A stretch of DNA of 64,000 nt from a virus, in the IMG/VR virus record IMGVR_UViG_3300044807_000022, positions 1 to 64,000 of that record; one strand, given 5' to 3'. Of this stretch, positions 4,477 to 54,105 are shown piece after piece; position 1 is the stretch's first letter, and each line of letters opens with the position of its first letter. The position numbers and the translations under genes are program-made. The notes beneath the pieces are model-generated. The model was given only the letters and a program-made list of their open reading frames with translations. It had not been told where the DNA came from and searched no databases.

Positions 4477-4487
4477 TTCGTAGATTA
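4477..4487 (+). promoter_or_regulatory. Class II (late) promoter motif TTCGTAGATTA
   Basis: Repeated ahead of lysis, portal, head and tail genes. Confidence 0.65.
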
Positions 4488-4524
4488 GGGAGAGGCGGCC
4501 AACCGCCACCAGCTACGAACGTGC

Positions 4525-4875
4525 ATGCCACCTACCCGACGCCGACGCCGCCCCCCGCCACGCGAGAAGGGCGAGAGCTTTCCGACCTTCCTCAAGGTCC
4601 TCGTTCCGCTGTTCATCATGGGGCTCGCGGTGTTCCAGTCGGTCTCGAACAACGGTCATGTCGATAACAACGTCATCGGAGCGCTCGTCTTCATCGCCCT
4701 CGGAGGCGCTGTCGGCTACGTCGCTGACCGCTTCATCCAGGCTTGGCTTGGCATTGGACAGTCCACTACCATGCCCGTCACCGCCGCTGACGACGAGGAA
4801 GACCGTCGTCTCGCTGCCGGGGAGGATGACCCGCGTCGGGTGCGCCGCAAGCGGAAGCAGCACCGTGACGCTTAG
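4525..4875 (+). CDS. Putative holin (two TM helices, charged C-tail)
   Basis: Two hydrophobic segments; near the endolysin. Confidence 0.55.
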   Translation: MPPTRRRRRPPPREKGESFPTFLKVLVPLFIMGLAVFQSVSNNGHVDNNVIGALVFIALGGAVGYVADRFIQAWLGIGQSTTMPVTAADDEEDRRLAAGEDDPRRVRRKRKQHRDA

Positions 4876-4941
4876 GCTCGCCGCATACGTCCACACGCGC
4901 CTGGGCAGCACCACCCTGGGCGCTTGCCTCGGAGGGATCGC

Positions 4942-5565
4942 ATGGCTGATCCACTAGTCCGTCGCGCGAAGAAGTGGACCTACCTCACGTGGTGCGACCT
5001 GCGCAACCACCCGCTGATGCTCGTCGGCGCGCTGATAGGTGCCATCGCGTTCGCGGTCTACTTCGTCCAGCAGAGCGACACGAACAAGCGCATCGGCACC
5101 GTGGAGACGGTCATCAAGGTCCCGCGCCGCTGTCAGGCGCTCAAGTACCCGGATGCGCCGCACACCATCATCCTGATCTGCAACCCGGCCACCAAGCGCG
5201 AGATAGCGACGGCGAAGCGACACGCTCGCCAGGGCGCTCGGGAGGCTGCGGGGAACGTTCGCGCCCGCGCCCGGCGGAAGGCCGCTCGAACGCGGGGCCA
5301 GAACGGGGGGCCACTCCCAGGGGGCCGATCCGGAAGTCGTAACGGCAGTCAGGGGGTCGCGCCATCGCCTTCTCACCAACCACAGCCGCCTTCAAGGCCG
5401 CCGTCCGGGGGTGGTTCCTCATCGCCCCCGTCTTCGCCGCCCGCCCGAGCCGCACCGTCGCCCGGCCTGACCACGCCGCCGCTCGGGCCGATCCCTTCGC
5501 TGACCGTGCCGTTACCGAGCCCGTCGCTGCCACCACTGCCTCGCGCCGGGCAGTTGACGGGGTAG
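4942..5565 (+). CDS. Single-TM membrane protein with basic and Pro/Ser-rich tail (possible lysis accessory)
   Basis: GGAGG RBS; TM segment LMLVGALIGAIAFAVYFV. Confidence 0.6.
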   Translation: MADPLVRRAKKWTYLTWCDLRNHPLMLVGALIGAIAFAVYFVQQSDTNKRIGTVETVIKVPRRCQALKYPDAPHTIILICNPATKREIATAKRHARQGAREAAGNVRARARRKAARTRGQNGGPLPGGRSGSRNGSQGVAPSPSHQPQPPSRPPSGGGSSSPPSSPPARAAPSPGLTTPPLGPIPSLTVPLPSPSLPPLPRAGQLTG

Positions 5566-5613
5566 TAGGACAAGGCGTCCGGTGCCATGTCTACCCTGCG
5601 CAAGCAGAGAGGC

Positions 5614-5895: not shown

Positions 5896-5937
5896 CCGCC
5901 TGCAACGCAGCACCACATACACCTTGGGGGTGGACGA

Positions 5938-6981
5938 ATGCCTGCATCACCGAGAGCCCGGTTGCTCTCAATCCTTTCCGCAGTCGTAGCCGTTCTCGTT
6001 GCGCTCGTCGCGGCGCTCGGAGGCGGTGATGGCACTGCCACGGTGACGGTGCCCTCGAAGAACGGCCCCGCCGTCGTCGTGCCGGTGAAGGACCTGAGCA
6101 TCGTCCAGGACACCGAGGCCGGACACCACGCCGACGACAACCTGCGCAGCGAGAAGATGGTCACCCCGCAGGACCGCAAGGCGAACGCCGAGAAGGCGAG
6201 TCCGCTCACGCCACGGGTCTCCGGGCCGCCGCCGCTCGCGTCACCGCAGCAGGCCGGATGCCTGACCCGCCAGATACCGCACAACTTCTCGAACCGGAAC
6301 GGCACTAGGCCGCTCCTGATCGTCCTGCACTACACGGTCTCGCGCAACGTCGTCGGCTGGGGCGACGTGAACTCGATCTTCGCGTTCTTCAGCCAGGGCT
6401 CGACGCAGGCGTCCTCGAACTACGTCAACGACAACGAGGGCCACTGCATCTACATGGTGCCCGAGACCCAGAAGGCGTGGGCGCAGGCGGGCTTCAACTC
6501 GTACACGGCATGCTCGTTTGAGGTCATCAACACCGGCTCCGAGGCGACCTACGTCGGTTCGTTCGGCGGCGCTGGCGAGAGGGCGCTGGCTCGCGAGGTT
6601 CACGACTGCGCCGTCCGCTGGCACATACCGATCCGGCAGGGCCATACGAGCGGCTGCCAGGTCACCACGTCCGGCATCGTGGACCACCACTCGCTCGGCT
6701 CCTGCGGTGGCGGTCACTTCGACATTGGGCACTTCAGCGTGCCCCGGATCATCCAGGCCGCGCAGCAGGGCTCGGCTCCGGTCGTACTGCCCAAGGCCAA
6801 GGCGCAGGCGCTCTGCAACCTGCTCGTCGGCTACCGGCTCCGGAGGCTGGCTCACGTGCCGCTGGTGAAGGGCGAGAAGTCGGTCTACAAGCGTCGGACC
6901 AAGCGCATCAGGGCCGGGGGCTACTCCTGCTTCAGGCAGGGCAAGAGCCCGGTCGGCCTCATCAAGCGGCGCGGCGCGTAG
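5938..6981 (+). CDS. Endolysin, N-acetylmuramoyl-L-alanine amidase (Amidase_2-like) with N-terminal signal/anchor
   Basis: IVLHYT, ASSNYV, V-PE-xKAW, FEVI and HH...HFD amidase motifs. Confidence 0.88.
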   Translation: MPASPRARLLSILSAVVAVLVALVAALGGGDGTATVTVPSKNGPAVVVPVKDLSIVQDTEAGHHADDNLRSEKMVTPQDRKANAEKASPLTPRVSGPPPLASPQQAGCLTRQIPHNFSNRNGTRPLLIVLHYTVSRNVVGWGDVNSIFAFFSQGSTQASSNYVNDNEGHCIYMVPETQKAWAQAGFNSYTACSFEVINTGSEATYVGSFGGAGERALAREVHDCAVRWHIPIRQGHTSGCQVTTSGIVDHHSLGSCGGGHFDIGHFSVPRIIQAAQQGSAPVVLPKAKAQALCNLLVGYRLRRLAHVPLVKGEKSVYKRRTKRIRAGGYSCFRQGKSPVGLIKRRGA

Positions 6982-6990
6982 CAGCACCAC

Positions 6991-9492: not shown

Positions 9493-9511
9493 CGGGAATC
9501 GGAGGATCAGT

Positions 9512-10395: not shown

Positions 10396-10676
10396 CCGAA
10401 CTGAGCGAACTGATCCACGGCTACGGCATCTTCCTGGGGGCGTACTTCGGCATGGTCGCTGTCCTCTGCATCGTCCTGATCCTGCTGCTGCCGTGGGGGT
10501 GCGACTGCCACTGCGAGTGCGAGTGCGATGACGAGGAGGACGTGGAGCTACCACGCCCCGAGTCAGGTGGGTGGTGCGACTGCGGCGGGTTCACCGCTGA
10601 CGGTCGAGACGGCACGTACAGGTGGGGGTGGCACCGCTCGGAGTGCCCGCGCCTGAAAGAGCTTGGACCGCGCTAG
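10392..10676 (+). CDS. Small TM protein with Cys-rich cytoplasmic part
   Basis: ATGA overlap; TM followed by CDCHCECEC. Confidence 0.6.
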   Translation: MTELSELIHGYGIFLGAYFGMVAVLCIVLILLLPWGCDCHCECECDDEEDVELPRPESGGWCDCGGFTADGRDGTYRWGWHRSECPRLKELGPR

Positions 10677-12469
10677 TGGCCCTCGGTTACATCGAGGGAG
10701 CGCGGTCCCTGCCCGTCGAGTACGAGGGCATCCACTGGACCGAGGAGGACTTCACGCTGATGGCCCTCCTCGGGGACCCGATCTACGTGGCCGAACTGCT
10801 CTGGGAGGACCCCGAGAACCACGAATACGGTGGCTGCTACAAGGTCCGCGACTATCAGTACCCACTGTTCAGGGCCAACGGCTCGTACGAGATATTCGCG
10901 TGCGCGCGCTCGGTCGGCAAGACGGAGAGCATCAAGGCACGGGCGCAGTCGTTCGTCTTCAAGCGCATCGGCTCGAACCTGCTCCTGACCGCACCCGAGT
11001 TGATCCACCTGAAGCCGCTGACCGACGCCATCGAGGACAACTTCAGGGCCACCCGCCTGACCCGCGAACTACTCGACACGCGCGGCCAGAAGACCGGCTT
11101 CACGCACCGGCCGTTCGGCATCGACCTGATCGACGGGACCAAGATCGTCGGCCGCATCCCGCAAAAGCTGGGCACGGGCGTCAAGGGCCAGCACCAGCCG
11201 GACCTCATCATGGACGAGGGCCAGGACTACCCGGAGAAGGGCTACACCGAAATCGCAGAGACGGTGATGAAGGACACGGTGGACAAGGAGGGCAACCCCG
11301 ACTTCCACTACCACATCTACGGCGTGCATTCGGGCAACAAGGGCGGCGGCTTCTACAAGAACACCAGCGGCAACGCGTTCCGGGTGACGAACATCACCGC
11401 GCTCATGCGCCCCGACTGGCCCGGACCGAATGGCGAGCAGAAGAAGTTCGCGAAGGGCCAATACGGCGGCACGGGAAGTCCTGACTACCGTCGCAATATC
11501 TTGGGCGAGGCTGGGGGCGCGTCGAGTCCGTTCTTCGATCTGGCTCGGCTCATGTCCTGCGTCGATCAGGGCAAGGACGGCAACCCGGACGACTCGACGT
11601 ACAACACGCAGGAGTACCAGTTCAACGAGTATCGCGTCGAGGAGGTAGACGAGCAAGGCTTGCCGTTGACGGAGGTCTTCAGCCTGCCGAGCGGCTACAA
11701 GAACGTGTACGCGGGCATGGACGTGGGGCTCAATCAGTCCCCGACCGTCATCACGATCTGGGCGCACCAGAAGGTCGGCCGCGTCATGCGGCTGAAGCTG
11801 ATCCGACGCATCCATCTGGTCCGCTTCCGCTCGCGCCAGGTGCGCGAGGCCGTGTACGCCATCGCGTGGCACTTTGGCTCCGAGCTACGGGCGTTCGGCG
11901 TGGACCAGACGGGCCTCGGCAACGCCATCGTGCAGGAAATGGAGGACGACGACGGCGAGGGCGGCCTGATCCCACCGCCGTTCCTGACCGACGTGCTGCG
12001 CGGCTGGTTCTTCAACCAGAAGATTCCGGTGGGCGTGAGCAAGGAGTTCGTCGTCAACGACAACGGCCGCCTGAAGGACCAGTTCGGTTCATCGGTGAAG
12101 ATCGAGACCGATGTTCTGACGGGAATCACGCGCTACATCACCGAGCAGCCATTCATCGAGGCGGCCACCCGCTACCTGCGCGAGTTCGTGGACAGCGGCC
12201 TCCTCCTGCTGCCGTTCGACACCGACATAACGGACGACATGACGCGCGAGACACCGCAGCGCCTCCAGGCCATCGCTGGCATTCGCCGCAAGCCGAACGC
12301 CTACCACATCTTGGACTCCATGCGCGCCATGGCGATGAGCTTCAAGCAGGGCGACATAGACGCCGCGCTCGCCATCGACCCCGTGAAGCCGGTCATGGAC
12401 CACGCCGTGGACATGGGCGGCGACGTGATGGGCGGGCAGGAACTCGGCGGGGGTCTCGATGACTTCTAG
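10676..12469 (+). CDS. terL: Terminase large subunit
   Basis: ARSVGKT Walker A, LIMDEGQ Walker B, YAGMDVG nuclease motif, GVDQTGLG, HILDSMR. Confidence 0.92.
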   Translation: MALGYIEGARSLPVEYEGIHWTEEDFTLMALLGDPIYVAELLWEDPENHEYGGCYKVRDYQYPLFRANGSYEIFACARSVGKTESIKARAQSFVFKRIGSNLLLTAPELIHLKPLTDAIEDNFRATRLTRELLDTRGQKTGFTHRPFGIDLIDGTKIVGRIPQKLGTGVKGQHQPDLIMDEGQDYPEKGYTEIAETVMKDTVDKEGNPDFHYHIYGVHSGNKGGGFYKNTSGNAFRVTNITALMRPDWPGPNGEQKKFAKGQYGGTGSPDYRRNILGEAGGASSPFFDLARLMSCVDQGKDGNPDDSTYNTQEYQFNEYRVEEVDEQGLPLTEVFSLPSGYKNVYAGMDVGLNQSPTVITIWAHQKVGRVMRLKLIRRIHLVRFRSRQVREAVYAIAWHFGSELRAFGVDQTGLGNAIVQEMEDDDGEGGLIPPPFLTDVLRGWFFNQKIPVGVSKEFVVNDNGRLKDQFGSSVKIETDVLTGITRYITEQPFIEAATRYLREFVDSGLLLLPFDTDITDDMTRETPQRLQAIAGIRRKPNAYHILDSMRAMAMSFKQGDIDAALAIDPVKPVMDHAVDMGGDVMGGQELGGGLDDF

Positions 12470-13424: not shown

Positions 13425-13497
13425 TAATCCTGGTGATGACGTGCCCTTAATCCGTTCCCAGCGGGCCTTAATCCGGCTCCGATTCGTAGATTACGAA
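13425..13497 (+). promoter_or_regulatory. Three TAATCC boxes plus class II promoter of the portal gene
   Basis: TAATCC at 13425, 13448, 13469; TTCGTAGATTACGAA at 13483-13497. Confidence 0.6.
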
Positions 13498-13498
13498 G

Positions 13499-15745
13499 GT
13501 GTCTGAGCTAGTAGACCATCGCGGCGATCCCATCAGTTCAGTGGGTGGGTGGCGCGGCGAGGGTCCGCCCAGGCTGGAGAACGGCGACGGCACGCTGATC
13601 GTCAACGAGACGGACCTGCCGGACGGCGCGGTCCAGCATGCGGTCGCCACCTACTTCGAGGAGTCGGCCGCGTTCAACCTCGGCGGCAACTCGAACACGT
13701 TCCAGATGTACGCGAACCAGGGCGGCTCCATGCTGGCCCGGCCCAAGTTCAGTCCCCCCTCCGACGTGTTCGGGGAAATGCGGCTGGCCCGCGACCTGGC
13801 CGAGCGCGACGACGACGTGGGCTCGACCATCGGTGCGCTGGTCGCGCTCGCGTACGGGGAGGGCTTCCAGAACACGCACCCGGACGAGGTAACCGTCGCG
13901 CTCTACGACGAGATTGCCAAGAACATGAAGCTGCCGCAGGTCCAGGCAGAGGCGTACCGGGAACTGCTCATCACCAGCCAGATCATCAGCGTGACCCTGT
14001 TCACGCGCGAGAGCTACAGCTTCATCCCGCAGGGCACCGACCGCTACCGCACCCGCACGGTCACCAGCCCGCTCCTCGGGTTCCTCCCGGCCGAGCACGT
14101 GCGCGTCGTCGGCAACGACCTGTTCGGCGGCGGCGACCTCTACTTCCTCCCGCCCGACGAGAACCTGAAGCGGTGGCTGGTCGAGCGGTTCAACCCGAGC
14201 ACCAGTGCCGGTCGGCTCGCGCAGATGCGCTCCGAGGACCCGGTGGCCTACACGCTGTTCACCGAGGAGCACAAGGTCTCCCCCGTGGACCCGGACGACA
14301 CCATCGCCGGGCTCACGCTCTACCGGCTGAACCCGCGCATGATCGAGCGGTCGTTCTTCCCCAAGGGCGCGTGGAAGTACCCCCGGCCGCTGCTCACCCG
14401 CAACTTCGCTCTCCTCGAAGCCAAGCGGCTCCTGAACATCATGGACTACTCGCTCCTCCAGGGCGGCGCGAACTACATCGTGATCGCCAAGAAGGGCTCG
14501 GACGCGCAGCCCGCGCAGCCGGGCGAGGTCGAGAACCTGCGCGACGTGGTGCGCCGCGCAGGGCGGTCCGGCGTGATGGTGGGCGACCACCGGGTCAGCA
14601 TCGACATTCTGACGCCGGAACTGAAGGAACTGATGAACCCGGACAAGCGCCGCCTGCTCGGACGCAAGCTGTCGCAGGCGATGACGCGCGTGCCCGAGCA
14701 CACCAGCGAGAACGCCGGGACCGAGGGCATGAAGTCCGAGGTAGAAATCCTGACGCGCGTCGTGGCTTCCGACCGCAAGATGGTGAGCATGCACATCGTC
14801 GCGGCGGCCTACGAGCCCACGGCGAAGCGCAACCCGAACACGTTCACGGGCGGCCCGGCGAAGCTCTGGCACCCCAAGATCGTCCTCCAGGGCACGAACT
14901 ACTTCACGGACATGATCCTGAAGCTGCTCGACCGTGGCGCGATCCCGCTGCGCTACGCCGTCGAGTTCGCGGGCTTCGACTTCGAGGCCGCCGTCGAGGA
15001 GAAGAAGCGCCAGAAGGCGCAGGGCCTCGATGAGGTCATGGCCCCCGCGCCCGGCCAGGTGCCGCACTCCTCACCGAACGTCGGCCCGCAGGACAACGGC
15101 CCCGGCCGCACGCCTGGTGGCGACGACCCGGCCAGGCCAAAGCGCAAGATCGCGCAGAACCCCGGCGAGACGATCAAGGCGATCTACGACGAGGAGGCCC
15201 GCAGGGTCACGCGCGTAGGCGAGCGCACGCTGAGCATCCTGGAGGACCACGACGATACGCGCAGCGAGGGCCGCGTGAGCGCCATCGAGCGCCGCGTGGT
15301 CGAGACGCGCCGCCCCGACCGCCAGGGTCCCGTGCGCGTCGTGCCGGTGAGCGACCTGGAGGTCTCCAGCCTCGGGGCCGTCCGTCTGGGCGACCCGGCC
15401 GACACGTCGCTGATTCTCGGCCGCCGCGACGAGGACGACGCGCTCGTCACCGTCGCGCTCAGCTTCCGTGGCCCCGGCTCCATGAACGACGCCGTGAAGG
15501 CGGCCATGGAGTGGGGCTTCGACCCGTTGACCGAGACGGCCGACGAGGAGCACGCCATGCAGCACGTCACGGTGGGCGAGCCCTCGGGCGTCGAGCCCCT
15601 GCTGGCCGTGCTCGCCTCAGCCGTCGCCTCGCAGGCCAGCGTGCAGCTTCCGCCCATCACGATCCACGTCCCAGGCCAGCGCGCTCAGCGCGTGCTGTAC
15701 GACGACGACGGCCGCGTGAAGGGCACCGAGCCGGTGGAGGACTAG
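13499..15745 (+). CDS. Portal protein with C-terminal extension
   Basis: Size and position after TerL; helical core; Pro/Gly linker then extra domain. Confidence 0.8.
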   Translation: MSELVDHRGDPISSVGGWRGEGPPRLENGDGTLIVNETDLPDGAVQHAVATYFEESAAFNLGGNSNTFQMYANQGGSMLARPKFSPPSDVFGEMRLARDLAERDDDVGSTIGALVALAYGEGFQNTHPDEVTVALYDEIAKNMKLPQVQAEAYRELLITSQIISVTLFTRESYSFIPQGTDRYRTRTVTSPLLGFLPAEHVRVVGNDLFGGGDLYFLPPDENLKRWLVERFNPSTSAGRLAQMRSEDPVAYTLFTEEHKVSPVDPDDTIAGLTLYRLNPRMIERSFFPKGAWKYPRPLLTRNFALLEAKRLLNIMDYSLLQGGANYIVIAKKGSDAQPAQPGEVENLRDVVRRAGRSGVMVGDHRVSIDILTPELKELMNPDKRRLLGRKLSQAMTRVPEHTSENAGTEGMKSEVEILTRVVASDRKMVSMHIVAAAYEPTAKRNPNTFTGGPAKLWHPKIVLQGTNYFTDMILKLLDRGAIPLRYAVEFAGFDFEAAVEEKKRQKAQGLDEVMAPAPGQVPHSSPNVGPQDNGPGRTPGGDDPARPKRKIAQNPGETIKAIYDEEARRVTRVGERTLSILEDHDDTRSEGRVSAIERRVVETRRPDRQGPVRVVPVSDLEVSSLGAVRLGDPADTSLILGRRDEDDALVTVALSFRGPGSMNDAVKAAMEWGFDPLTETADEEHAMQHVTVGEPSGVEPLLAVLASAVASQASVQLPPITIHVPGQRAQRVLYDDDGRVKGTEPVED

Positions 15746-16111: not shown

Positions 16112-16483
16112 ATGGCGACCGCAGTCTCCATCGACTCCGTGACGACGGAGGACGCAGCGCCGACCACGGCACCGCACAGGATCAGCAGCGTCACCGGCAA
16201 GAAGACGGTCACGTTCAAGTTCACGCCGACTACGACCGACGCGAGCAACATCAGGGCGTGGCTCGTCCGGTTCGGCGGGGCCAGTCGGACCACCGGCACG
16301 CGGCTCGCGGGGCTCGGCATGGTGTGCGGTCTCTGGCGCTGCGGCCTGGACCGGCCACTCTCCATCGCCTCGGGCTTCCAGGTCACCGTCGATGAGGACT
16401 ACCCCGAGCTTCCGAGTTCCGCTGACGGCACCTACGCGGTGAACGTCTACGCGATCAGCGACACGCAGGGCTGGAACCCCTAG
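16112..16483 (+). CDS. Ig-like virion protein
   Basis: Beta-rich; shares motifs with 18988..19665. Confidence 0.55.
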   Translation: MATAVSIDSVTTEDAAPTTAPHRISSVTGKKTVTFKFTPTTTDASNIRAWLVRFGGASRTTGTRLAGLGMVCGLWRCGLDRPLSIASGFQVTVDEDYPELPSSADGTYAVNVYAISDTQGWNP

Positions 16484-18954
16484 TGGACTACACCAAGACG
16501 ACGTGGGTGGACGACGACGGCTCGGGCACGACCGGCACGGTTGGCACGGCCGCGCGCCTGAACAACATCGAGGACGGGATCGCGGACGCCATCGCGCACA
16601 ACCGGATCGGGACCTTCGCCGGGATGCCCGCTGCGGCGGCGGGCAACAAGAACTGGCTCTACATCGTCACGGACTCGGACGACAAGGCGGGCCTCTACCT
16701 CTCAAGCGGCGCGTCCTGGACCAAGATGCAGGTCGGGTCCCTGCCGCTCACGGGCACCCTGTTCGGCACGACGGCCCCCGGCTCGCTGTACGGCCGGTCC
16801 GACAGCGGCGCGCTCATCTTCAACTACAACTACAACACTGACCGCCTCTCGGATACGAGCAAGCCGGGGTGGCTCGTCAAGGGCACGTACAGCGGCGGTG
16901 ACACGCTCACCGTCGCACGGGCGGCGGCCACCGCCGGGTCGCCCACGTGGACCTCCGTATTCACGATTGACTCGACGGGTCAGATCACGGCCGTTGGCAG
17001 CAACCACAAGTTCGGTACGGGCGCACTGGTCCGCTCGACCCTCGTGGACGGTTGCACGGTGCGCTCGAACTACGACCCCGCGACAGACCGGCTGCTCGAC
17101 ACGTCCAAGGCCATGTGGGTCATTTCCGTGGGCGACGGCACCGACCGCTTTGTGGTGTACCGGGCCGCACCCACGGCGGGCTCACCTTCGCTGGCTACCG
17201 TTGGCACCTTCGACTCGTCTGCCCTGTTGACCGGCGCTGGCAACGTCAGGTTCGGCACGGGCGGCACGCTCAGGTCGGCTACGGCGGACAACGCTGCGCT
17301 CCACTCGAACTACAACCCGACGACCGACCGCCTGATCGACACGTCGAAGACCGCATGGCAGGCCGTCGCGGGTGCGGCTGGCGACGTGTTCTCGGTCTAC
17401 CGTGCCCCCGCCACGGCTGGTTCACCCGCGTTTGTCCTCATGTTTCAGGTGGCCTCCGATGGCGTTATGTCGCAGCACAACATTCGCAGCGGCCTCCTCT
17501 CTGCCCGTTCCGCCGCTGGGGCCAGCAACAAGGGCCTCTACGCGGCGACCGACGACGCGCTGTGGGCGAACCTCGACGGCTCGAAGTACACGCGCATCGC
17601 GGCGACTGGCGCAGGGTTCTTCGGGGACGGTTCAGACGGTGCGTGGACCGCGCAGGTCACGCCGACGAACGTGCTGGCGAACCCGGACGCCGAGTCGAAC
17701 ACCACGGGCTGGGCCGGGTTCTTCACCGGGGGCGGTGCCGGGTCAGGTCCGACGAGAGTTTCCGACGCGGGCGCGGGTAGTGGCTCCTTCGCCTTCGAGC
17801 TATCGAACGCGACCGCATCCGGCGCGGGCATCCTGCTCATGTACCCCGGTGGCCTATCGAGCTTCATCGGCGGTCAGAACGTCGTGCCTGGGCAGGTGGT
17901 GGACTTCAGCGGTCAGATGAAGGCCCAGGCTGGGACCTTCACTTCGCTCAAGCTCGTGGCCCGGTGGCTCAAGGCAGACGGCACGCTCATCAGCGAGGTT
18001 GACGTGACCGGCGCGGTGCAGAACTCGCCGGTCGTCGGGACCTGGTACTCGCTCAGCGGCTCGCTCACCGCACCCCCCCTCGCCGCGTACGCGGGCCTGG
18101 AAGCGATGGCCTCGTTCGGCGGTGCCGGGAGCTACACGATGCGCGCCGACAACCTCGCCTCCCGGCCGATCATGCCCGGCGCGACCCGCTCGGGCAGCGT
18201 CTACACCCTCACGCGCGACGTGTACTTCACGGACCTGACCGTGAACACGGGCGTCAGCATCGTGAGCGCGGGCTACAAGGTCTTCGTCAAGAACACGCTC
18301 AGCGGCGCGGGCACCATCAGCGCGAACGGCGGCAACGGTGGCACACCCTCTACGCAGTCTGGGGGCACGGGAGCCGCGCCCGGTTCGGTCCACGGTGGCT
18401 ACCCCGGTGGCGCTGGCGGCGCGATCAACGGCAACGGCAACCCGGTCGGCACGCAGGGATGGTCAACCGGACACGGTGGCACCGGGGGCACCGGAGGCGC
18501 GTCGGGCGTGCGCACGGGCGGCAACCCCTCCGCGACAACCCCGCCGAGCGGCGGAATCCGACGCTCGCTGCCCGAACTGGTCTCGGGGGTCGTTCACGAC
18601 CTGTTCTCGGGCATCGAACTACTCGGCGGTGGCGGCGGCTCGGGCGGTGGCGCGGGCAGCACCACGGCAGTCGGCGGCGGCGGCGGCGGCGCTGGCGGGC
18701 TCTTGATCGTCGTCGCCCGCACCCTCGCTGGCACCCTCGCCTTCGAGGCCAAGGGTGGCAACGGCGCACAGGGCGGCGCGAACGCTGGCGGCGGCGGCGC
18801 TGGCGGTGGTGGCGCGATCCACCTGTTGTACGGCGACAACAGCGGATGGACCGGCACGACGAGCGTCGTCGCCGGGGCGGTTGGCGCGGCGAACGGCACT
18901 GGAGCCGCGGGAGTAGCAGGCACAGCGGGCGTAGCCATCGCACTCGCGATCTAG
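16483..18954 (+). CDS. Fibre protein: three internal repeats, carbohydrate-binding-like domain, Gly-rich C-terminus
   Basis: YTKTTWVD...RLNNIEDGI anchor; NVLANPDAE CBM-like start; FFGDGSDG and Gly-rich tail. Confidence 0.8.
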   Translation: MDYTKTTWVDDDGSGTTGTVGTAARLNNIEDGIADAIAHNRIGTFAGMPAAAAGNKNWLYIVTDSDDKAGLYLSSGASWTKMQVGSLPLTGTLFGTTAPGSLYGRSDSGALIFNYNYNTDRLSDTSKPGWLVKGTYSGGDTLTVARAAATAGSPTWTSVFTIDSTGQITAVGSNHKFGTGALVRSTLVDGCTVRSNYDPATDRLLDTSKAMWVISVGDGTDRFVVYRAAPTAGSPSLATVGTFDSSALLTGAGNVRFGTGGTLRSATADNAALHSNYNPTTDRLIDTSKTAWQAVAGAAGDVFSVYRAPATAGSPAFVLMFQVASDGVMSQHNIRSGLLSARSAAGASNKGLYAATDDALWANLDGSKYTRIAATGAGFFGDGSDGAWTAQVTPTNVLANPDAESNTTGWAGFFTGGGAGSGPTRVSDAGAGSGSFAFELSNATASGAGILLMYPGGLSSFIGGQNVVPGQVVDFSGQMKAQAGTFTSLKLVARWLKADGTLISEVDVTGAVQNSPVVGTWYSLSGSLTAPPLAAYAGLEAMASFGGAGSYTMRADNLASRPIMPGATRSGSVYTLTRDVYFTDLTVNTGVSIVSAGYKVFVKNTLSGAGTISANGGNGGTPSTQSGGTGAAPGSVHGGYPGGAGGAINGNGNPVGTQGWSTGHGGTGGTGGASGVRTGGNPSATTPPSGGIRRSLPELVSGVVHDLFSGIELLGGGGGSGGGAGSTTAVGGGGGGAGGLLIVVARTLAGTLAFEAKGGNGAQGGANAGGGGAGGGGAIHLLYGDNSGWTGTTSVVAGAVGAANGTGAAGVAGTAGVAIALAI

Positions 18955-20396: not shown

Positions 20397-20407
20397 TTCG
20401 TAGATTA
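20397..20407 (+). promoter_or_regulatory. Class II promoter motif TTCGTAGATTA
   Basis: Exact repeat of 4477 and 13483. Confidence 0.65.
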
Positions 20408-20415: not shown

Positions 20416-20571
20416 ATGGGCGCGCTCGTTCAGCTTCTCGTCGCAGTCATCGTCGCGGCCATTTTCTACGCAATCGCGGTAGCCCTCGGGCTGCCTGCGC
20501 CGGTCCCGCTGATCGTCGCGCTGGTCGCGCTCCTGGTCGCGTGGAAGTCCGACTTGCCCTCGCGGGTGTAG
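20416..20571 (+). CDS. 51-aa two-TM membrane protein (not in ORF track)
   Basis: MGALVQLLVAVIVAAIFYAIAVALGLPAPVPLIVALVALLVAWKSDLPSRV, directly after the promoter. Confidence 0.65.
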   Translation: MGALVQLLVAVIVAAIFYAIAVALGLPAPVPLIVALVALLVAWKSDLPSRV

Positions 20572-20576
20572 CGCGC

Positions 20577-21932
20577 ATGCCGGTGAAGTTCCCCAAGGGC
20601 ACGCAGGTCTTCGAGCGGGGCGACAAGGTGTTCATGGTCGCCCCGGTCTCGCCGCTCACGGTCACCGACGAGCAGATCGAGGAGTTCGCCTTCGCGGACT
20701 CGGTGAAGCGCATGCGCTCGCAGGCACCGAATCCGAACCTGGCGTGGTTCGGCGGCCACTACGTCGAGGCCGACGCGGCGAACCGCAACGGCGCGATGTG
20801 GACCGCAGGCGAGCTTGCCATCAAGGCGGTCACGCCGATGTTCATGCCCGTGACCGTGATGCACGATCCTCGTACAGCCGTTGGCCTGATCGCTGACACG
20901 GTGCTCAAGACGCCCGACCAGCATCAGGTCCCACGCTCCCGCATCGAGACGGCCCTGGCTCTCTGGGCGCACCGCTTCCCCGAGGCGGTCGAGGAGGCCA
21001 TGCACAACTACAAGGCCGGGACGCTCATGCAGTCCATGGAGTGCCTGGCCCCGGAGTATTCCTGCTCCACGTGCGGCATGACGTACCAGAAGCTCCCGCG
21101 CGGCGCAGAGCGCGCGAACTGGTGCTCGCACCTGCTGGAGTCGAACCCCAGCGGTGGCTACACGGCACGGGCGGGGGAAAGTCCAACTGCCGTTCGTATA
21201 TTACGCCAAGTCTGCTTCACCGGGACCGGACTCATCTACGGAACTCGGGGGGCCAGAGGCGCAGACCCACACGCGAACCTCGAAGCCTTCCAAGAAGAAG
21301 TAGCGGAGTACCACGAACGGTCTCACCGCACTGATACGCGAAAGCCCCGGAGGACTCGAACCAGCATGGACCCCATCGAAGTCGCCAAGTCGGAGTACGA
21401 GGCCCTGCTGAAGCGGCCCGAGCAGAAGACGCTCGACGCTGCCATCGAGCGGGCGGAAGCCGCCGAGGCGAAGGTCGCCACGCTGGAGGAGGAGAAGGCC
21501 GCCGCCGAGAAGGCGAAGGCCGACGCCGAGGAGGCCAAGGAGGCAGCCGAGAAGAAGGTCTCGGACGCCGAGGAGAAGGCCGCCGCCGCCGACCTCAAGA
21601 CCAAGCGTCTCGACGCGCTGGGCGAGGGCTTCAAGGCCAAGCTCGGCGCGAAGACCAAGGAGCGCCTGACCGAGCAGGCCGGGACCATGAAGGACCCGGA
21701 GTGGGAGGCGCGCCTGGAGGAGCTTGCCGAGGCGTACGGCGTCAAGCCGGACGAGGCCAAGGCCAGCACCGAGGCGGACGGCGACGAGACCGTCTTCACG
21801 CGCGACGAGGTTGCGCGGAGCAAGACGGCCGGTGCCTCCGAGGAGGAGCACGCCTCCGCGCAGCCGTCCGAGGCCGCGCAGAAGAACGTCGTCGGCGGGC
21901 TGTTCTCGATGGCCCGCGCGGGGAAGCTCTAG
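20577..21932 (+). CDS. Prohead protease-scaffold fusion
   Basis: ANRNG, V-x-x-MH, QSMEC, CSTCG and FTGTG protease-like motifs; C-terminal Glu/Lys/Ala coiled coil. Confidence 0.8.
   Translation: MPVKFPKGTQVFERGDKVFMVAPVSPLTVTDEQIEEFAFADSVKRMRSQAPNPNLAWFGGHYVEADAANRNGAMWTAGELAIKAVTPMFMPVTVMHDPRTAVGLIADTVLKTPDQHQVPRSRIETALALWAHRFPEAVEEAMHNYKAGTLMQSMECLAPEYSCSTCGMTYQKLPRGAERANWCSHLLESNPSGGYTARAGESPTAVRILRQVCFTGTGLIYGTRGARGADPHANLEAFQEEVAEYHERSHRTDTRKPRRTRTSMDPIEVAKSEYEALLKRPEQKTLDAAIERAEAAEAKVATLEEEKAAAEKAKADAEEAKEAAEKKVSDAEEKAAAADLKTKRLDALGEGFKAKLGAKTKERLTEQAGTMKDPEWEARLEELAEAYGVKPDEAKASTEADGDETVFTRDEVARSKTAGASEEEHASAQPSEAAQKNVVGGLFSMARAGKL
21193..21205 (+). promoter_or_regulatory. Intragenic class II promoter TTCGTATATTACG
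   Basis: Identical 13-mer at 27053; forces rare ATA TTA codons. Confidence 0.6.
21366..21932 (+). CDS. Scaffold protein from an internal in-frame start
   Basis: GGAGGA 11 nt upstream of ATG (MDPIEV); downstream of the internal promoter. Confidence 0.5.
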   Translation: MDPIEVAKSEYEALLKRPEQKTLDAAIERAEAAEAKVATLEEEKAAAEKAKADAEEAKEAAEKKVSDAEEKAAAADLKTKRLDALGEGFKAKLGAKTKERLTEQAGTMKDPEWEARLEELAEAYGVKPDEAKASTEADGDETVFTRDEVARSKTAGASEEEHASAQPSEAAQKNVVGGLFSMARAGKL

Positions 21933-22008: not shown

Positions 22009-22608
22009 ATGGACTACGGCATCTTCCCGCTGAAGGACGCATCTGCGCTCCCCAACGTCTCGGTGGCGCATCCCGGCGAGGTCTGGACCCGAGGCGTGGC
22101 CTCGGGCGCGATCCGACCGGGCCAGGCCGTCGTTCCGGTCAACCGGACCGTCAACGGCCGCGACACGCTCTGCTACAAGGCGGTCGGCGGCTCGGCCGAC
22201 GTGTCGAGCGCGGCAGTCGCGCCGTCGCAGGTCGCCATCGCCATGCGCAAGATCGAGGTCCCGGACCAGAACAGCGGCTCGCAGTACAACGAGGCGCTGG
22301 GTCCGAACCAGATCGTCAACCTCCCGATCAGCGACGGCGACTACGTGCGCACGTACTTCTCGGGGGCGTTCCACCTGACCCAGATCGTCGCGGCCGACTA
22401 CAAGCCCGGCGACCGGATCGGCTACGACCCGGCGGCCACGCCGCAGACGGGCAAGGTCGGGCCGGGCGCGTGGCGCAAGTCGGCGGACGCCGGGGCGGTC
22501 CTGAAGGACCACTTCGAGGTCATCGAGTTCCGGCGCTTCGAGCCCGCCGGGGGTGTCGCCAACGAGGGCATCCTGACCGTCCGCAAGCTCGGGGCCGCGC
22601 AGTTCTAG
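22009..22608 (+). CDS. Capsid decoration/cement protein
   Basis: Between scaffold and major capsid gene; strong RBS. Confidence 0.6.
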   Translation: MDYGIFPLKDASALPNVSVAHPGEVWTRGVASGAIRPGQAVVPVNRTVNGRDTLCYKAVGGSADVSSAAVAPSQVAIAMRKIEVPDQNSGSQYNEALGPNQIVNLPISDGDYVRTYFSGAFHLTQIVAADYKPGDRIGYDPAATPQTGKVGPGAWRKSADAGAVLKDHFEVIEFRRFEPAGGVANEGILTVRKLGAAQF

Positions 22609-22699: not shown

Positions 22700-23647
22700 A
22701 TGGACAACGTGATCTTCAACACGCTCAAGGCCGTCCGGTCCGAGGAGAACGCGGAGCGGCGCGCCGAACTGATGGAGCGCTCGAACGCGGAGCTTGCTCA
22801 GCACTTCTCGCGCCCGCAGAACCAGGCCGACCTTCAGGAGTTGGCGTTCGACCTCCTGAACAACGCCTGGAACGACACGACCCGGCAGGACATTCTGCCG
22901 GACCTCATCGACGTGAAGACGGTCGGCTTCGGCTCCGTCGATTACGTCAACGAGAACCTGTACGGCATGCGGGCCTACTGGCAGGGTCCCGGCGGCCAGA
23001 TTCTCTCGGACGTGCTGCGCTACTCGCGCACCACGATGCCGCGAGACGGGATGGTCGCCGCCATCGACCTGCACGACGACGAAATCGCCACGGACTTCTG
23101 GGGCACGTTCCAGAAGCTCTCGGCGCACGCGTCGGAGAAGCTGGCCCTCCTCCCGGCCGAGCGCCTGGTGGAACTGATCCAGCGGGCCGTCACGTCGGGT
23201 GCCTACTTCGGCTCCTTCGCCGCGAGCACGCTCACGGCGGCCGAGGTCGATTCGGTCCTCGACAACGTGGCCCTCAAGTCGGCGGGCAAGGTGTCCATCG
23301 TCGGGACCCGGTACGCGATCCGCAAGCTCGCGAACATCGGCCTGGCGTTCGGCCCCAACGTCCAGGAGCGGGTCTTCGACTCGGGCCAGATCGGCGTCTA
23401 CAAGGGCTACCCGGTGGTCCAGTTGGACAACGAGCAGGAGAACTTCGAGGGGCAGTTCGCGCTGCCCAACGACGAACTCTGGCTCGTCGGCCGCAACGCC
23501 GGTCGTCTGACCTACTACGGCAACGAGGCCAAGGTCCAGACGCTCCAGCGCTCGGGCTTCTACAAGCGCTGGGAGACGGAGCGCGCCGCAGGCATGCTCC
23601 TCTACGGCGCGGACTTCGGGCGGCTCGGCCGCATCAAGCTCACCTAA
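22700..23647 (+). CDS. Major capsid protein (HK97-like)
   Basis: Position, 315 aa, G-x-YKGYPVV motif, strong RBS, downstream hairpin. Confidence 0.8.
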   Translation: MDNVIFNTLKAVRSEENAERRAELMERSNAELAQHFSRPQNQADLQELAFDLLNNAWNDTTRQDILPDLIDVKTVGFGSVDYVNENLYGMRAYWQGPGGQILSDVLRYSRTTMPRDGMVAAIDLHDDEIATDFWGTFQKLSAHASEKLALLPAERLVELIQRAVTSGAYFGSFAASTLTAAEVDSVLDNVALKSAGKVSIVGTRYAIRKLANIGLAFGPNVQERVFDSGQIGVYKGYPVVQLDNEQENFEGQFALPNDELWLVGRNAGRLTYYGNEAKVQTLQRSGFYKRWETERAAGMLLYGADFGRLGRIKLT

Positions 23648-27052: not shown

Positions 27053-27065
27053 TTCGTATATTACG
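27053..27065 (+). promoter_or_regulatory. Class II promoter TTCGTATATTACG
   Basis: Upstream of the major tail gene pair. Confidence 0.65.
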
Positions 27066-27092: not shown

Positions 27093-27404
27093 ATGCGGCA
27101 ACTACTGGAACTGGTCACTCGGTACATACAGGGTCGGAGACGACGCTACCTCGCGCAGATGCTCGGAGAGTTCGAGCGGAGCGTGGAGCCTCATCTGAAC
27201 CTGGATGACCCGCAGGTGGTCGGTGGCGTGAACGAGTTCAAGGCGCTTGTACGCATGCGACTGAACGCTCTCGCGGTGGACGCCGTGGACGCGCTGAAGG
27301 CCACGCTGGAAGGCAAGAGCATCAACCAGGCCGGACAAGACCTACGCGACAGGCTGCACCCCGAGGGTCGGCCCCAACCCACCAGGAGACCAGACACCGC
27401 ATGA
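27093..27404 (+). CDS. Hypothetical protein
   Basis: Follows the promoter; ATGA overlap with the major tail gene. Confidence 0.65.
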   Translation: MRQLLELVTRYIQGRRRRYLAQMLGEFERSVEPHLNLDDPQVVGGVNEFKALVRMRLNALAVDAVDALKATLEGKSINQAGQDLRDRLHPEGRPQPTRRPDTA

Positions 27405-28648
27405 GCGTTCGAGCCGGGGAAATCCTTCATGTAGCGGGCAACAACGTGATCGACCGCATCCAGTCGGCCGGTCTCGGCAACGTTCAGGTGCCCATCGAGC
27501 GCATCCTGGAGGTCGGCAACCGGGAGACCGTGGACAAGGTTCCGGGCGAGCCGGACTTCACGTTCTCGCTGGAGTCGCTGGACGTGTCCGTCGAGCTTCT
27601 GGCGTTCCTCTCGGGGCGCGTCTCGGCGGCGGCCTCGGGCTCGGCGTCGGTCGCGGAGACCGTCGCGGACGGGACCGAGTTCGACTGGCTCGACGTGGCC
27701 GGTCGCGCCATCAACATCGCTTCGCCGTGGAAGGACCCGAGCACGGGTTCAGCGGGCGTCGTGGAGGCGGGGCACCTGATCCCCGGCTACTACGTCACCC
27801 GCATGGCCTACCGCTACGGCGTGACGGACAACGCCACCCAGAGCGTGGACCTGTCCGGCGGCGCGTTCTTCTACGGCGAGTTCGCGCCGACCGAGGCGTT
27901 CTTCACGGGCGACGGCGCGACCGACGACTTCGTGACCCCGAACAACGCGGTCGGCTACCGCAAGGGTGGCGCGGACGGCACGACCTTCAAGTCGGTGTTC
28001 GGCGTCATCGTGGACGGCACGCTCCAGACCGAGGACGTGGACTACACGGTCACCCCGACGACCGTGGGCGCGGGCGCGCGCACGGTGACGTTCACGAACC
28101 CGCCCGCCAACGGCGCGGACGTGCGGCTCTGCTACTTCACGAACGCGGCCAAGGCGTTCCCGCAGACGGTCCACGCCTCGACGCTCGTCAAGCCCGGCGC
28201 GGTGCGCGGGCGCAACATCAAGATTCTCGTCAACGGCGACCGGATCGGCGGCGTGCAGAGCTTCGAGCTTGACGCCACCTGCACCGGCACGCTGGAGCGG
28301 GAAATGGGCACCGAGGACGTGGTGGGCTACACGCTCACCGAGACCAACGCGAACGGCACCATCACGATCCGCGCCAAGGACAAGGACGCGTTCTTCACGT
28401 TCCTGTCCGAGGTCACGGGCGTCTCGCGCGCGGAGGTCTTCGGCTGGTTCAACCAGAACTCGGTCGAACTGGAGGTCTTGGTCGAGAACCCCAAGAACCC
28501 CGGCCAAATCCTCAAGACCCTGTACGTCAACGACGCGCAGTTCCAGCCGCCCGGCACCCCGGCGCGCGTCAACCAGGCGACCGACTTCGCCATCACGTGG
28601 GAGTCGAAGCGCGGCAGCTTCAAGGAGTACAAGGGAGAGCGGCCCTAG
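27401..28648 (+). CDS. Major tail (tube) protein
   Basis: Beta-rich with inserted FTGDGAT...FTNPPANGA domain; precedes chaperones and tape measure. Confidence 0.75.
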   Translation: MSVRAGEILHVAGNNVIDRIQSAGLGNVQVPIERILEVGNRETVDKVPGEPDFTFSLESLDVSVELLAFLSGRVSAAASGSASVAETVADGTEFDWLDVAGRAINIASPWKDPSTGSAGVVEAGHLIPGYYVTRMAYRYGVTDNATQSVDLSGGAFFYGEFAPTEAFFTGDGATDDFVTPNNAVGYRKGGADGTTFKSVFGVIVDGTLQTEDVDYTVTPTTVGAGARTVTFTNPPANGADVRLCYFTNAAKAFPQTVHASTLVKPGAVRGRNIKILVNGDRIGGVQSFELDATCTGTLEREMGTEDVVGYTLTETNANGTITIRAKDKDAFFTFLSEVTGVSRAEVFGWFNQNSVELEVLVENPKNPGQILKTLYVNDAQFQPPGTPARVNQATDFAITWESKRGSFKEYKGERP

Positions 28649-51335: not shown

Positions 51336-52120
51336 TCGTGGTCCCGACGTATATCAATGCGCCGCAGGACCTCGCGGTGGTGATGGACTGCCTGAAGTCG
51401 GCCAACCGTACGGCTGGGGAGGACGCGGACGTGCTCGTGGTCGATGACTGCTCGCCGCGCCAAGACCTCGTGGATGCGCTCGACGGCGCGAAGTCGAGGC
51501 TGGAGTTCGAGCTTCACCGCAAGGACGAGAACACGGGCTTCTCGAAGACGGTGAACGTCGGGCTGCGCCGGGCTCTCGATGAAGGGCGTGACGCCATCCT
51601 CGCGAACGCCGATCTGGAGTTCATAGATCGTGGCTGGGTGCCACTGATGCAGCGACAGCAGACCTCCGACGAGGACGGCACTCTCGCGTACGTAGTCGGC
51701 GCGCTGCTGCTCTACCCGAACGGGCTGATCCAGCACGCGGGCGACTACTTCTCGTTCCTCGACCGGGTGTTCTCGCACTGGCTCCAGTACGGGCCGCAGG
51801 ACCTACCCGAGGCGCAGCGTGCGCAGCCGAGTCTCGTGACGGGGGCGCTCCAGTTCATCCGCCACGAATGCCTGACGACAGTCGGGCTGTACGACGAGCA
51901 GTTCAAGCTCGGCTACGAGGACGTGGACTACTGCATCCGCGTGTTCAACGCCGGGCAGGAGTGCGTGTACCAGCCGCACGTCCGGGCCTATCACTTCGAG
52001 TCGATGTTCCGAGGTCGCAAGAGCGACAAAATCATCGCGTGGGAGACTGAAAGCTGGGTCTACTTTATGACCAAGTGGCGCAACCAGTCCTTCGCGCGGT
52101 TCATTCCAAGGATCGTATGA
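51323..52120 (+). CDS. Glycosyltransferase family 2
   Basis: IVVPTY, VVDDCS, N-x-GF-x-x-x-VN-x-G, NAD, GYEDVDYC-x-R. Confidence 0.92.
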   Translation: MRPLIVVPTYINAPQDLAVVMDCLKSANRTAGEDADVLVVDDCSPRQDLVDALDGAKSRLEFELHRKDENTGFSKTVNVGLRRALDEGRDAILANADLEFIDRGWVPLMQRQQTSDEDGTLAYVVGALLLYPNGLIQHAGDYFSFLDRVFSHWLQYGPQDLPEAQRAQPSLVTGALQFIRHECLTTVGLYDEQFKLGYEDVDYCIRVFNAGQECVYQPHVRAYHFESMFRGRKSDKIIAWETESWVYFMTKWRNQSFARFIPRIV

Positions 52121-52623
52121 ACGACGACCGTCACGAAGTAGGTCCCGCCGCGTTCTCCCCCGACCGCCTGTACCGCTACATGCTCACGCGGGAGTGGGAC
52201 AAGGCGGCCCCTCGCCTGATGGTGGTGGGCCTCAACCCGAGCACCGCCGACGAGCACTCGCTGGACCCGACGCTGCGGCGCGTGCGCGAGTTCGCCAAGC
52301 GCTGGGGCATGGGCGGGTTCGTAATGACGAATCTGTTCGCCTTCAGGGCGACCAAGCCCAAGGACATGATGGCCGCCGCCAATCCGGTCGGCCCCATGAA
52401 CGACCAATGGCTAGAGCACCTGGCGAAGGATTCGGGCCTGGTCCTCGCCGCCTGGGGTGCGCACGGCGGCTTCCTCGACCGCGACAAGCGCGTGCTCGAA
52501 CTCCTGACGACCGTTAGAGGTTCACCGCCGCTCTGTCTGGGGACGACAGCGAAGGGCTTCCCCCGCCACCCGCTCTACCTCAAGAGCGACACCGATCCGA
52601 TCCCGTACCTGGGCCGACTGTGA
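52117..52623 (+). CDS. DUF1643-family protein
   Basis: YRY-x-L-x-R-x-W, LNPSTAD...DPT, NLFAFRAT-x-P, AAWG, PRHPLY. Confidence 0.9.
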   Translation: MNDDRHEVGPAAFSPDRLYRYMLTREWDKAAPRLMVVGLNPSTADEHSLDPTLRRVREFAKRWGMGGFVMTNLFAFRATKPKDMMAAANPVGPMNDQWLEHLAKDSGLVLAAWGAHGGFLDRDKRVLELLTTVRGSPPLCLGTTAKGFPRHPLYLKSDTDPIPYLGRL

Positions 52624-53645
52624 AGGCGCTGTTCGTCGGCAAGGGCAAGGCGCGCACGGCGTGGTACCGCTGCTACCTGCCTGCGATCTACATGGGGGCC
52701 GACTGGTCGGGCCTCGAAGGCGTGCCGCCGAACGAGGTACACGTCACCGGGCAGGTGGGCGACAACACGCAGCGGCCCAATATGTTCGACTACGACGTGG
52801 TGGTCATCCAGCAACCGGCCGATCAGGCGTGGCTCGACCACATCAAGAGGCTGCGGGCCGCTGGTGTGAAAGTGCTAGTGGAGATAGACGATTACGTCCA
52901 CGGCATCCCGAGGAAGAAGGACCACGACTTCCGCGAGCACTTCACCCCCGAGTACCTGCGTGGGCTCGAACGCTGCATGCGCGCCGCCGATGGGCTCATC
53001 TGCTCCACCGAGTACCTGGCGAAGCGCTACCGACAGTTCAACGATCAGGTCTGGGTCTGCCTCAACTGCCTCGACATAGCTCGCTACCGACTGACCCGCC
53101 CGCCGCGTTCGACGGTGAACATCGGGTGGGCCGGTGCGACGGCGCACGCCGAGGCGGTGATGGGCTGGCTGCAAGCCGTCGCCAACGTCATGTTCGCGAA
53201 GGACAACACGTGCTTCGTGTCCATCGGCCAGCCGTTCGCGGAGCCGTTCAAGGAGCACTTCCTGGACCGGGCCATCAGCATCCCCTTCACGATGCTGGAG
53301 ACCTACCCGGCCGCCATGACGATGTTCGACATAGCGCTCGCGCCTGCGGGTCGTGGCTCGTTCTACCGAGGCAAGTCCGACCTGCGCTGGCTGGAGGCGG
53401 GCGCGCTCGGCATCCCGCTCATTGCGAGCCCCAAGGTCTACCCGATGATCGAGCACGGCGTGACGGGTTTCCATGCGTCGTCCGCCCAGGAGGTCGAGGA
53501 GGTCTTGTTCGACCTGGTGGCCGACGAGGAAAAGCGAACGAGAGTCGGAGAATCCGTCAAGCGCTACGTGCTGGAGGAACGCTCGATGGAGGTCGGCGTG
53601 GCGCAGTGGCAAGCGGCGCTGGGGGAAGTTGTCGCAGCATCGTAA
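52620..53645 (+). CDS. Glycosyltransferase, GT-B (GT4-like)
   Basis: WYRC-x-x-P, EIDD, ST-x-x-LA, IGWAG, DIALAP, KS-x-L-x-x-LE-x-x-A-x-G-x-P-x-IAS. Confidence 0.88.
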   Translation: MKALFVGKGKARTAWYRCYLPAIYMGADWSGLEGVPPNEVHVTGQVGDNTQRPNMFDYDVVVIQQPADQAWLDHIKRLRAAGVKVLVEIDDYVHGIPRKKDHDFREHFTPEYLRGLERCMRAADGLICSTEYLAKRYRQFNDQVWVCLNCLDIARYRLTRPPRSTVNIGWAGATAHAEAVMGWLQAVANVMFAKDNTCFVSIGQPFAEPFKEHFLDRAISIPFTMLETYPAAMTMFDIALAPAGRGSFYRGKSDLRWLEAGALGIPLIASPKVYPMIEHGVTGFHASSAQEVEEVLFDLVADEEKRTRVGESVKRYVLEERSMEVGVAQWQAALGEVVAAS

Positions 53646-54105
53646 ATTAGGGGTAGCGAGCAACCGCGAAACGGGGGTCGGAATGCTGGCAAGGCTGAGG
53701 ACGGTGGCAGGGCACACGCTCTGGCTCCTGGACTACCACACGACGGTCATCCGCCGGAACGCCAAGGCTCGGGGCGCATGAGGGCCTGTGCGGGCTCCTG
53801 TGGCGTCCTGAGCGCCGAGGCGGCCCATGTGAGGGAAGTCGCCGCCCACCACGGCCGCGAGGCGCTGAGGGCGCTCCTGCTGGGCCGTGTGCGGGTGCTC
53901 GCCACGCTGCCGGTCCGAGTCGCCTTCTCCCTGGTCGCCGGGGTCCCGGAGCACTTCACCTATGAAAGCACCACTACACCCCGTTAGCACCTGCGCGGTG
54001 AACCCGCACCTGGCCCCCGGTCACTGTGGGTGTTACGACTGCGGCAAGAAGCTCGTCGCCGCCTACGCCCCGCACGTTCTCAAGCGCTAACGGCCGTCGC
54101 GCGAT

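Follow-up and report, generated by a model that had tools for sequence, protein, structure and literature searches.

Minimal alternative sigma factors can read long words at -10 in the absence of a -35 element: T4 gp55 reads the late promoters TATAAATA of its phage, and streptococcal ComX reads the cin-box/com-box TACGAATA. Primary sigma factors read -10-only promoters by a TGn extension, and host sigma A reads the late -10-only (extended -10) promoters of the Thermus phage phiYS40, whose late messages are reportedly leaderless. Late -10-only (extended -10) promoters read by host sigma A are also described for the Thermus phage P23-45 (PMC4124052). In Deinococcus, TANNNT motifs next to open reading frames (ORFs) have been validated experimentally as a leaderless arrangement (PMC12340547), and leaderless transcripts are also described for mycobacteria (PMC4633059). 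Here we analyse a 64,000-nucleotide (nt) stretch of viral DNA, positions 1 to 64,000 of the IMG/VR record IMGVR_UViG_3300044807_000022 (hereafter the window), which is part of a complete 85,063-bp phage genome from a soil metagenome with direct terminal repeats and 68% GC. Its lysis, head and tail genes are accompanied by copies of a word with the core CGTANATTA, which is very probably, judged from its sequence and setting, a promoter of -10-only, leaderless architecture, and for which a sigma-70-family factor encoded by the same phage is a candidate reader.

The word resembles the targets of gp55 and ComX in being an invariant AT-rich stretch of 8-9 nt centred on -10 with no -35, in recurring as many one-strand copies before late or specialised genes, and in its association with a small divergent sigma-70-family factor, here a candidate. 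It differs from them in the word itself, in the predicted leaderless mRNAs, in a sigma factor that keeps sigma4 and is closest to SigH/ECF, and in that no gp33- or clamp-type co-activator is known. With P23-45 and phiYS40 it shares a high-GC host, the -10-only design, start codons adjoining the -10 element and structural genes downstream, whereas TGn is here replaced by an invariant (T)CG and the phage encodes its own sigma factor; gp39/gp76-like RNA polymerase-binding proteins were not identified, no search having been aimed at a gp39-like factor. In Deinococcus-Thermus and mycobacteria, too, TANNNT stands at a fixed 6-8 nt before the start codon and combines promoter with leaderless mRNA, but the three middle bases and the flanks are free there, whereas here nine of ten positions are fixed and the word is confined to one phage family.

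Results

Copies of the word in the phage genome

A preliminary description of the window had placed TTCGTA(G/T)ATTA upstream of lysis, portal, protease and major tail genes and once inside the protease gene, with a variant ahead of a sigma gene, and had considered such recurrence unlikely by chance. All five exact copies of TTCGTAKATTA are present on the + strand, against 0.01 expected, and at least five were reached in 0/100 shuffles; allowing one mismatch brings no further copies in the window. The variant at 53639 is likewise there and matches the family-wide core, the gene contexts are largely correct, and the motif does mark structural and lysis genes. The copies, termed class II, are as follows.

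4477..4487, + strand: class II copy TTCGTAGATTA; predicted -10 hexamer TAGATT at 4481-4486, predicted transcription start site (TSS) at ~4493
13483..13493, + strand: class II copy TTCGTAGATTA; 16 nt before the portal GTG 13499
20397..20407, + strand: class II copy TTCGTAGATTA; ATG 20416 is the 10th nt after the hexamer
21193..21203, + strand: internal class II copy TTCGTATATTA, inside ORF 20541-21932; predicted TSS at ~21209
27053..27063, + strand: class II copy TTCGTATATTA; ORF 27093-27404 and the putative major tail gene 27401-28648 lie downstream
53639..53649, + strand: variant ATCGTAAATTA, consistent with the family core TCGTANATTA; the sigma gene lies 500 nt downstream

Beyond the window, one more exact copy (genome position 81787) brings the whole genome to seven (six exact and the 53639 variant), all within the + gene block; scanning of the whole genome gave no copy on the - strand or in the - strand gene block. 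Downstream of the 4477 copy lie a holin-like ORF with two transmembrane segments (4525-4875), a second membrane ORF and the amidase endolysin (5938-6981). ATG 20416 opens a 51-amino-acid (aa) hydrophobic membrane ORF, to which the protease/scaffold ORF 20541-21932 is next, and the putative major tail gene 27401-28648 precedes the tape-measure gene, relatives having TATATT copies at the place equivalent to 27053. Within the 53639 variant, TAA 53643-53645 is the stop codon of the glycosyltransferase gene 52620-53645. Alignment of the seven genome copies shows a purine as the 7th base after TAKATT in 7/7; CCGnCG is loosely kept at -10..-5 relative to the motif, with a GAA-rich word farther upstream, and no canonical TTGACA-type -35/-10 pair was found in 12.5-28.5 kb.

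Conservation across the phage family

For comparison, 39 related IMG/VR loci (556 kb; portal identity 37-50%) were retrieved with the portal alignment A1, a set that lies outside the closest portal homologues (74-86% identity; P0003, 74%). In these loci the portal strand carries 144 copies of the core CGTANATTA and the opposite strand none; all 144 family copies, like the 7/7 of this genome, are co-oriented with the genes. It precedes the portal gene in 34 of the 37 assessable loci, and the four whole relatives carry 4-9 copies each, on one strand only, clustered from ~9 kb before to ~15 kb after portal. The invariance of C at -14 follows from the definition of the search; TANATTA taken by itself on the portal strand has CG directly before it in 146 of 147 cases, and the canonical TANAAT stands at background in the same loci (10 vs 12). 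The base before CGTANATTA is T in most lineages and G, C or A in others, and the family logo reads T at -1, the invariant core and then A-G-G. Neither the logo nor a positional k-mer test revealed a conserved -35. A CCGACG block 4-5 nt upstream of the motif is found in this genome and in the nearest lineages (G005, L021, L004 and L001), at times preceded by TTAGAA or GAAAGT. Word searches of the literature for the motif returned nothing relevant.

Probable promoter architecture and predicted leaderless starts

An ATG or GTG of a long ORF with high GC at third codon positions (GC3, on which the gene calls of this analysis are based) begins 7-10 nt past TANATT at 57 of ~140 unique sites (~40%), the first base of the start codon lying 7 nt (19 sites), 8 nt (23), 9 nt (10) or 10 nt (5) after the last T. 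Because start codons follow at 7-10 nt and the 7th base is a purine in this genome, TANATT is best read as a -10 hexamer giving a leaderless mRNA: it has the TANNNT shape of sigma-70-type -10 elements, including their A (position 2) and T (position 6), and a purine or start codon at the distance expected of a leaderless -10 promoter. The designation of the motif as a promoter element, made in the preliminary description, thus finds support in strand specificity, family-wide conservation and fixed start-codon spacing. TANATT would occupy -12..-7, with transcription predicted to start at the purine 7-8 nt downstream, often the first base of ATG or GTG. Since the family has no conserved -35, the determinant of recognition would be an uninterrupted invariant stretch, about -14 to -6, that mostly has a T ahead of it and GG after it. 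An invariant word of at least 8 nt at -10, the lack of a -35 and a sigma factor in the same genome are features of promoters of the gp55/ComX type, and all three are seen here; dependence of the promoter on the phage sigma factor is plausible. The extended -10 of primary sigma factors (TGn, with TG at -15/-14) is absent, -15 to -13 being T/G-C-G.

The predicted promoters would stand at the start of the portal, protease, scaffold/capsid, major tail and lysis transcription units. At the portal gene, GTG 13499 is the 7th nt after TAGATT of the 13483 copy, and the portal mRNA from this copy would be leaderless. The portal protein in the database (734 aa) starts at 13541, 14 codons downstream of GTG 13499 (748 aa); should the promoter interpretation hold, the public annotation truncates the protein. 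The central base N of the hexamer seems to tune strength, the scaffold/capsid and tail sites, which serve bulk products, being TATATT. Many relatives have AGGAG after the motif, a sequence that is absent in this genome and that, lying 1-3 nt from ATG, is too close to be a ribosome binding site; it may serve read-through transcripts.

Two details of the preliminary description did not hold in this comparison. It had likened the motif to the CGT-containing -10 boxes of ECF sigma factors. CGT is indeed present, and the candidate sigma factor has sigma2 and sigma4, but CG falls at about -14/-13, and CGT, in a register that rests on the inferred TSS, lies 11-12 nt upstream of that start in the extended -10 position and not at about -12..-10; the AT-rich TANATT at -12..-7 is the core, and the AAC -35 expected 16-17 nt upstream of an ECF CGT -10 is not conserved, this genome having GAA-like words at variable spacing, ~13-14 nt from CGT. 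The dyad CGTA-NAT-TACG was also described, and it does occur in three of the seven copies; as a conserved feature it fails, since relatives mostly have ATTAGG.

The internal copy and a probable nested scaffold gene

A site of the 21193 type is kept in essentially every relative, ~200 codons into a ~440-codon gene that begins at its own leaderless class II site. In this genome the site is read in frame as CGT-ATA-TTA (Arg-Ile-Leu), and as ATA accounts for 4.9% of the Ile codons and TTA for 0.44% of the Leu codons, the DNA word is selected at a cost in codon usage. Of 27 relatives, 26 have T as the central base of this site, a position that is mixed at other sites. The N-terminal half of ORF 20541-21932 gives a weak match to a head-maturation protease and the last 188 aa are rich in Ala, Glu and Lys, a composition seen in scaffold proteins; GGAGGA precedes an in-frame ATG at 21366. 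The internal site is followed by this nested 188-aa ORF, then ORF 22009-22608 and the capsid-like ORF 22700-23647, and the internal promoter probably drives a nested scaffold gene and the capsid gene as one message, an arrangement analogous to that of lambda C/Nu3.

At genome position 74354 (region 74350-74375), AAGTCCGAACTGCCGTTAGGCT is closely similar to AAGTCCAACTGCCGTTCGTATATT upstream of the internal promoter (21178-21203). The stretch looks like a duplicated promoter in which a GC-rich -10, TAGGCT, replaces TATATT.

The phage sigma factor

The candidate reader is encoded near the end of the + strand block.

54137..54763, + strand: sigma-70-family factor, 208 aa, sigma2 + sigma4

Searched alone, ORF 54137-54763 does not reach the Pfam thresholds (r2 E 0.022). 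Its homologues form 250 clusters at 50% identity, and the resulting sigma profile matches sigma-H (3mzy; positions 30-184, E 7.7e-13), CnrH (positions 15-177) and SigE, all three over both domains; Pfam matches among 72 homologues were to Sigma70_r2 (63), r4_2 (19) and r4 (15). In an AlphaFold model with a predicted local distance difference test score of 84.8 the top fold matches are all sigma factors, the best being the B. subtilis SigH model. Profile, Pfam matches of the homologues and fold agree with the assignment made from the window, and the ORF is a real two-domain sigma factor closest to SigH and ECF types. The genome has no other sigma-like region. ORF 72151-73290 (379 aa), which has a helix-turn-helix-like stretch at residues 231-264, was considered as a second sigma factor and rejected, as Pfam, a PDB sequence search and hhalign against the sigma profile were all negative.

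A sigma homologue is present in 5/5 near-complete relatives, 6/6 counting this genome. The diversity of the sigma alignment A2 precluded a locus scan, and the smaller alignment A3, used instead, returned three IMG/VR loci, all of them contigs of the same phage family; the link between sigma factor and motif is therefore without an independent backbone for comparison.

The sigma gene itself lies behind a site of a second kind (class I), CGTCCGG-N10-TAGCGT at 54107-54128, with ATG 54137 at 8 nt after TAGCGT. In G002 and G005 the hexamer of the sigma gene follows CGTCCG-N11, as in this genome, and the sigma genes of relatives follow GC-rich hexamers (TACCCT, TACCTT, TAACCT, TACGCT and TACTCT), never CGTANATTA. 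The preliminary description had proposed a cascade from class I promoters through the phage sigma factor to class II, possibly with autoregulation through the 53639 copy. The different promoter type before the sigma genes of relatives fits a cascade; autoregulation does not carry over, the 53639 copy being a feature of this genome only and no examined relative having the motif before sigma.

Three sigma homologues, of L044 (G002), L045 (G001) and L042 (G004), have a long leader (~100-150 nt upstream). These relatives share GGCTG(G)CTGTG..AAC..GG and a hairpin followed by a T-run just before the sigma ATG, a sequence not found in this genome; the leader could be an attenuator or riboregulator.

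Genome setting and other elements

Genes of the + strand run from ~74.9 kb across the genome ends up to 54.76 kb, and those of the - strand from 54.76 to ~72.1 kb. The main features of the + strand block are listed below.

5938-6981, + strand: amidase endolysin
10622-12469, + strand: large terminase
13499-15745, + strand: portal homologue
20541-21932, + strand: protease/scaffold
22700-23647, + strand: capsid-like ORF
30005-34618, + strand: tape measure
45-53.6 kb, + strand: DnaB helicase and glycosyltransferases

No close cultured relative was found by megablast and tblastn against INPHARED, in which the sole match was TerL, at 30% to GX15bay. A protein search gave 436 portal homologues in metagenomes, many on contigs of 80-92 kb, and single-protein scans of IMG/VR with portal and with sigma as queries gave no match. 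Portal relatives occur in metagenome-assembled genomes of three different phyla, a spread that is probably a binning effect. No tRNAs were found in the phage genome, and a look-up of RNA runs containing this phage gave none. A tyrosine recombinase (56098-57162, - strand; Pfam Phage_integrase, 1e-19) is encoded in this genome, which has direct terminal repeats; the enzyme may point to a temperate phage or serve another purpose.

Stop codon, promoter and start codon can fall within ~20 nt, where TAG or TAA of the -10 hexamer is the stop codon of the upstream gene and the next start follows 7-10 nt on. At the 81787 copy, TAG in the hexamer (genome 81791-81793) ends the 58-aa ORF 81617-81793, and GTG 81806 is the 10th base after the hexamer. 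Directly behind this copy, tandem paralogues (81806-82285, with the leaderless-like GTG 81806, and 82290-82763) show a weak N-terminal match like HTH_38 and are candidate regulators under class II control.

A repeat of 36-50 nt in the early region, GTCACACTTTCC..TAGCCGGTTT..GCAGGTAG, lies at genome positions 69207-69256, 70919-70968 and 72129-72178 on the - strand and 73282-73326 on the + strand, with leaders that carry a Shine-Dalgarno sequence after it; its sequence is not conserved in the relatives G002-G005. The early repeat and the class I and class II sites have CCG(G) ~10-11 nt before a TAG or TANNNT word, and CCG at about -26..-24 may be a shared promoter feature of this genome.

Discussion

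An early or host-type promoter would first yield the phage sigma factor, whose own gene stands behind a different, GC-rich TANNNT promoter, and host core RNA polymerase carrying this two-domain SigH/ECF-like factor (54137-54763) would then transcribe the structural genes from CGTANATTA. Going by sequence and distribution, we give the phage sigma factor about an even chance of being the reader of the motif, and the full statement, which joins a -10-only leaderless promoter class to the phage sigma factor as likely reader and to a cascade, seems to us equally finely poised. The word is all-or-none and private to the family, and so is the sigma factor; an invariant CG takes the place of TGn, -15 to -13 being T-C-G with C invariant, and TANAAT is not used. 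The B. subtilis SigH -10 consensus, RnnGAATww, has the same register as G-T-A-n-A-T-T-A and provides a lead only.

The link between sigma factor and motif is circumstantial, and several observations weigh against it. Sigma factor and motif are both present in every family member, so that their association is confounded by common descent. A primary (group 1) sigma factor reads exactly this hexamer position, this A2 and T6 and a G-rich run following them, and any host sigma A would find a strong -10 in the AT-rich TANATT. Although the phage factor includes sigma4, a conserved -35 for it to contact is not apparent. Class I sites are interleaved in the same + block, so that the map does not reveal timing. 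In the 50,000 of 52,012 bases scanned, the outgroup phage GX15bay lacks both motif and sigma factor, a single outgroup that offers weak evidence. Whether residues of the sigma factor covary with the base (T, G or C) ahead of CGTA was considered but set aside, as phylogeny fully confounds the six genomes.

The foremost alternative, which we regard as a serious contender though an appreciably less probable one, is that host sigma A holoenzyme reads the motif as a -10-only promoter, perhaps aided by a phage factor that disables -35-dependent promoters, as happens in Thermus phages. The phage sigma factor would then serve another class, for instance class I (CGTCCGG-N10/11-TANNNT) before its own gene, with ECF-style autoregulation. 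The register of TANATT, -12..-7, is the canonical one and start codons come 7-10 nt after it, the geometry of the sigma A leaderless promoters of Deinococcus-Thermus (PMC12340547), and the late cluster of Thermus P23-45 is transcribed by host RNA polymerase from a -10-only (extended -10) promoter after gp39 has shifted its preference (PMC4124052). Class I sites stand before the sigma gene in G000, G002 and G005, as for an autoregulated alternative sigma factor, but class I is poorly conserved in relatives (1-4 sites) and the sigma factor is conserved. Reading by sigma A is also at odds with the absent TGn and the invariant C at -14, and with an all-or-none word (146/147 with CG, TANAAT unused) that is stricter than the degenerate TANNNT usual for sigma A.

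All readings other than the phage sigma factor or host sigma A together account for only a small part of our expectation. It is improbable that the motif is a site for a phage DNA-binding protein, an operator or late activator site (for example for the helix-turn-helix proteins of 81806-82763), or a signal at the RNA level, for instance in translation or processing, and not itself the -10 element. The CGTA-NAT-TACG dyad of three of the seven copies speaks for such a site, as do the Shine-Dalgarno-like AGGAG of many relatives and the CCGACG 4-5 nt upstream in this genome and its closest relatives, which could be a protein site. Yet the dyad is missing from four of the seven copies and from most relatives, in which ATTAGG prevails, and since it is not conserved we reject the dyad or operator reading; a palindromic operator also fits poorly with one-strand orientation (144 vs 0), AGGAG is both too near ATG for a ribosome binding site and absent here, and the A2/T6 hexamer with its 7th-nt purine fits a -10 element and TSS. 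Least probable is a promoter of an unrecognised phage-encoded RNA polymerase, single-subunit or non-canonical, for although such promoters are likewise long, invariant, strand-specific words and several large ORFs have no family match (for example the 823-aa ORF 16483-18954), the genome has no T7-type RNA polymerase domain in a search whose control gave no signal, the large ORFs scanned have no Pfam or PHROG RNA polymerase match, the TANNNT form of the motif is that of sigma-dependent promoters and a sigma factor is encoded by the phage.

Returning to the phage sigma factor as reader, we tentatively propose, at slightly under an even chance, that a large family of ~85-kb uncultivated soil phages runs its structural programme from the private 9-nt -10-only word CGTANATTA through a SigH-like sigma factor of the family, with leaderless late mRNAs and a nested scaffold message, as an independent gp55-style switch in high-GC, leaderless-tolerant hosts, probably actinobacteria. 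The motif marks transcription units and true leaderless starts and so improves annotation, and the heavy use of leaderless mRNAs narrows the likely hosts to known users such as Actinomycetota or Deinococcota. If the phage sigma factor is the reader, the two would form a compact orthogonal sigma/promoter pair for high-GC bacteria and, if true, this would be a second, independent case of -10-only late transcription by a minimal phage sigma factor. In the motif, a large group of uncultivated soil phages has a regulatory code that is simple and can be tested.

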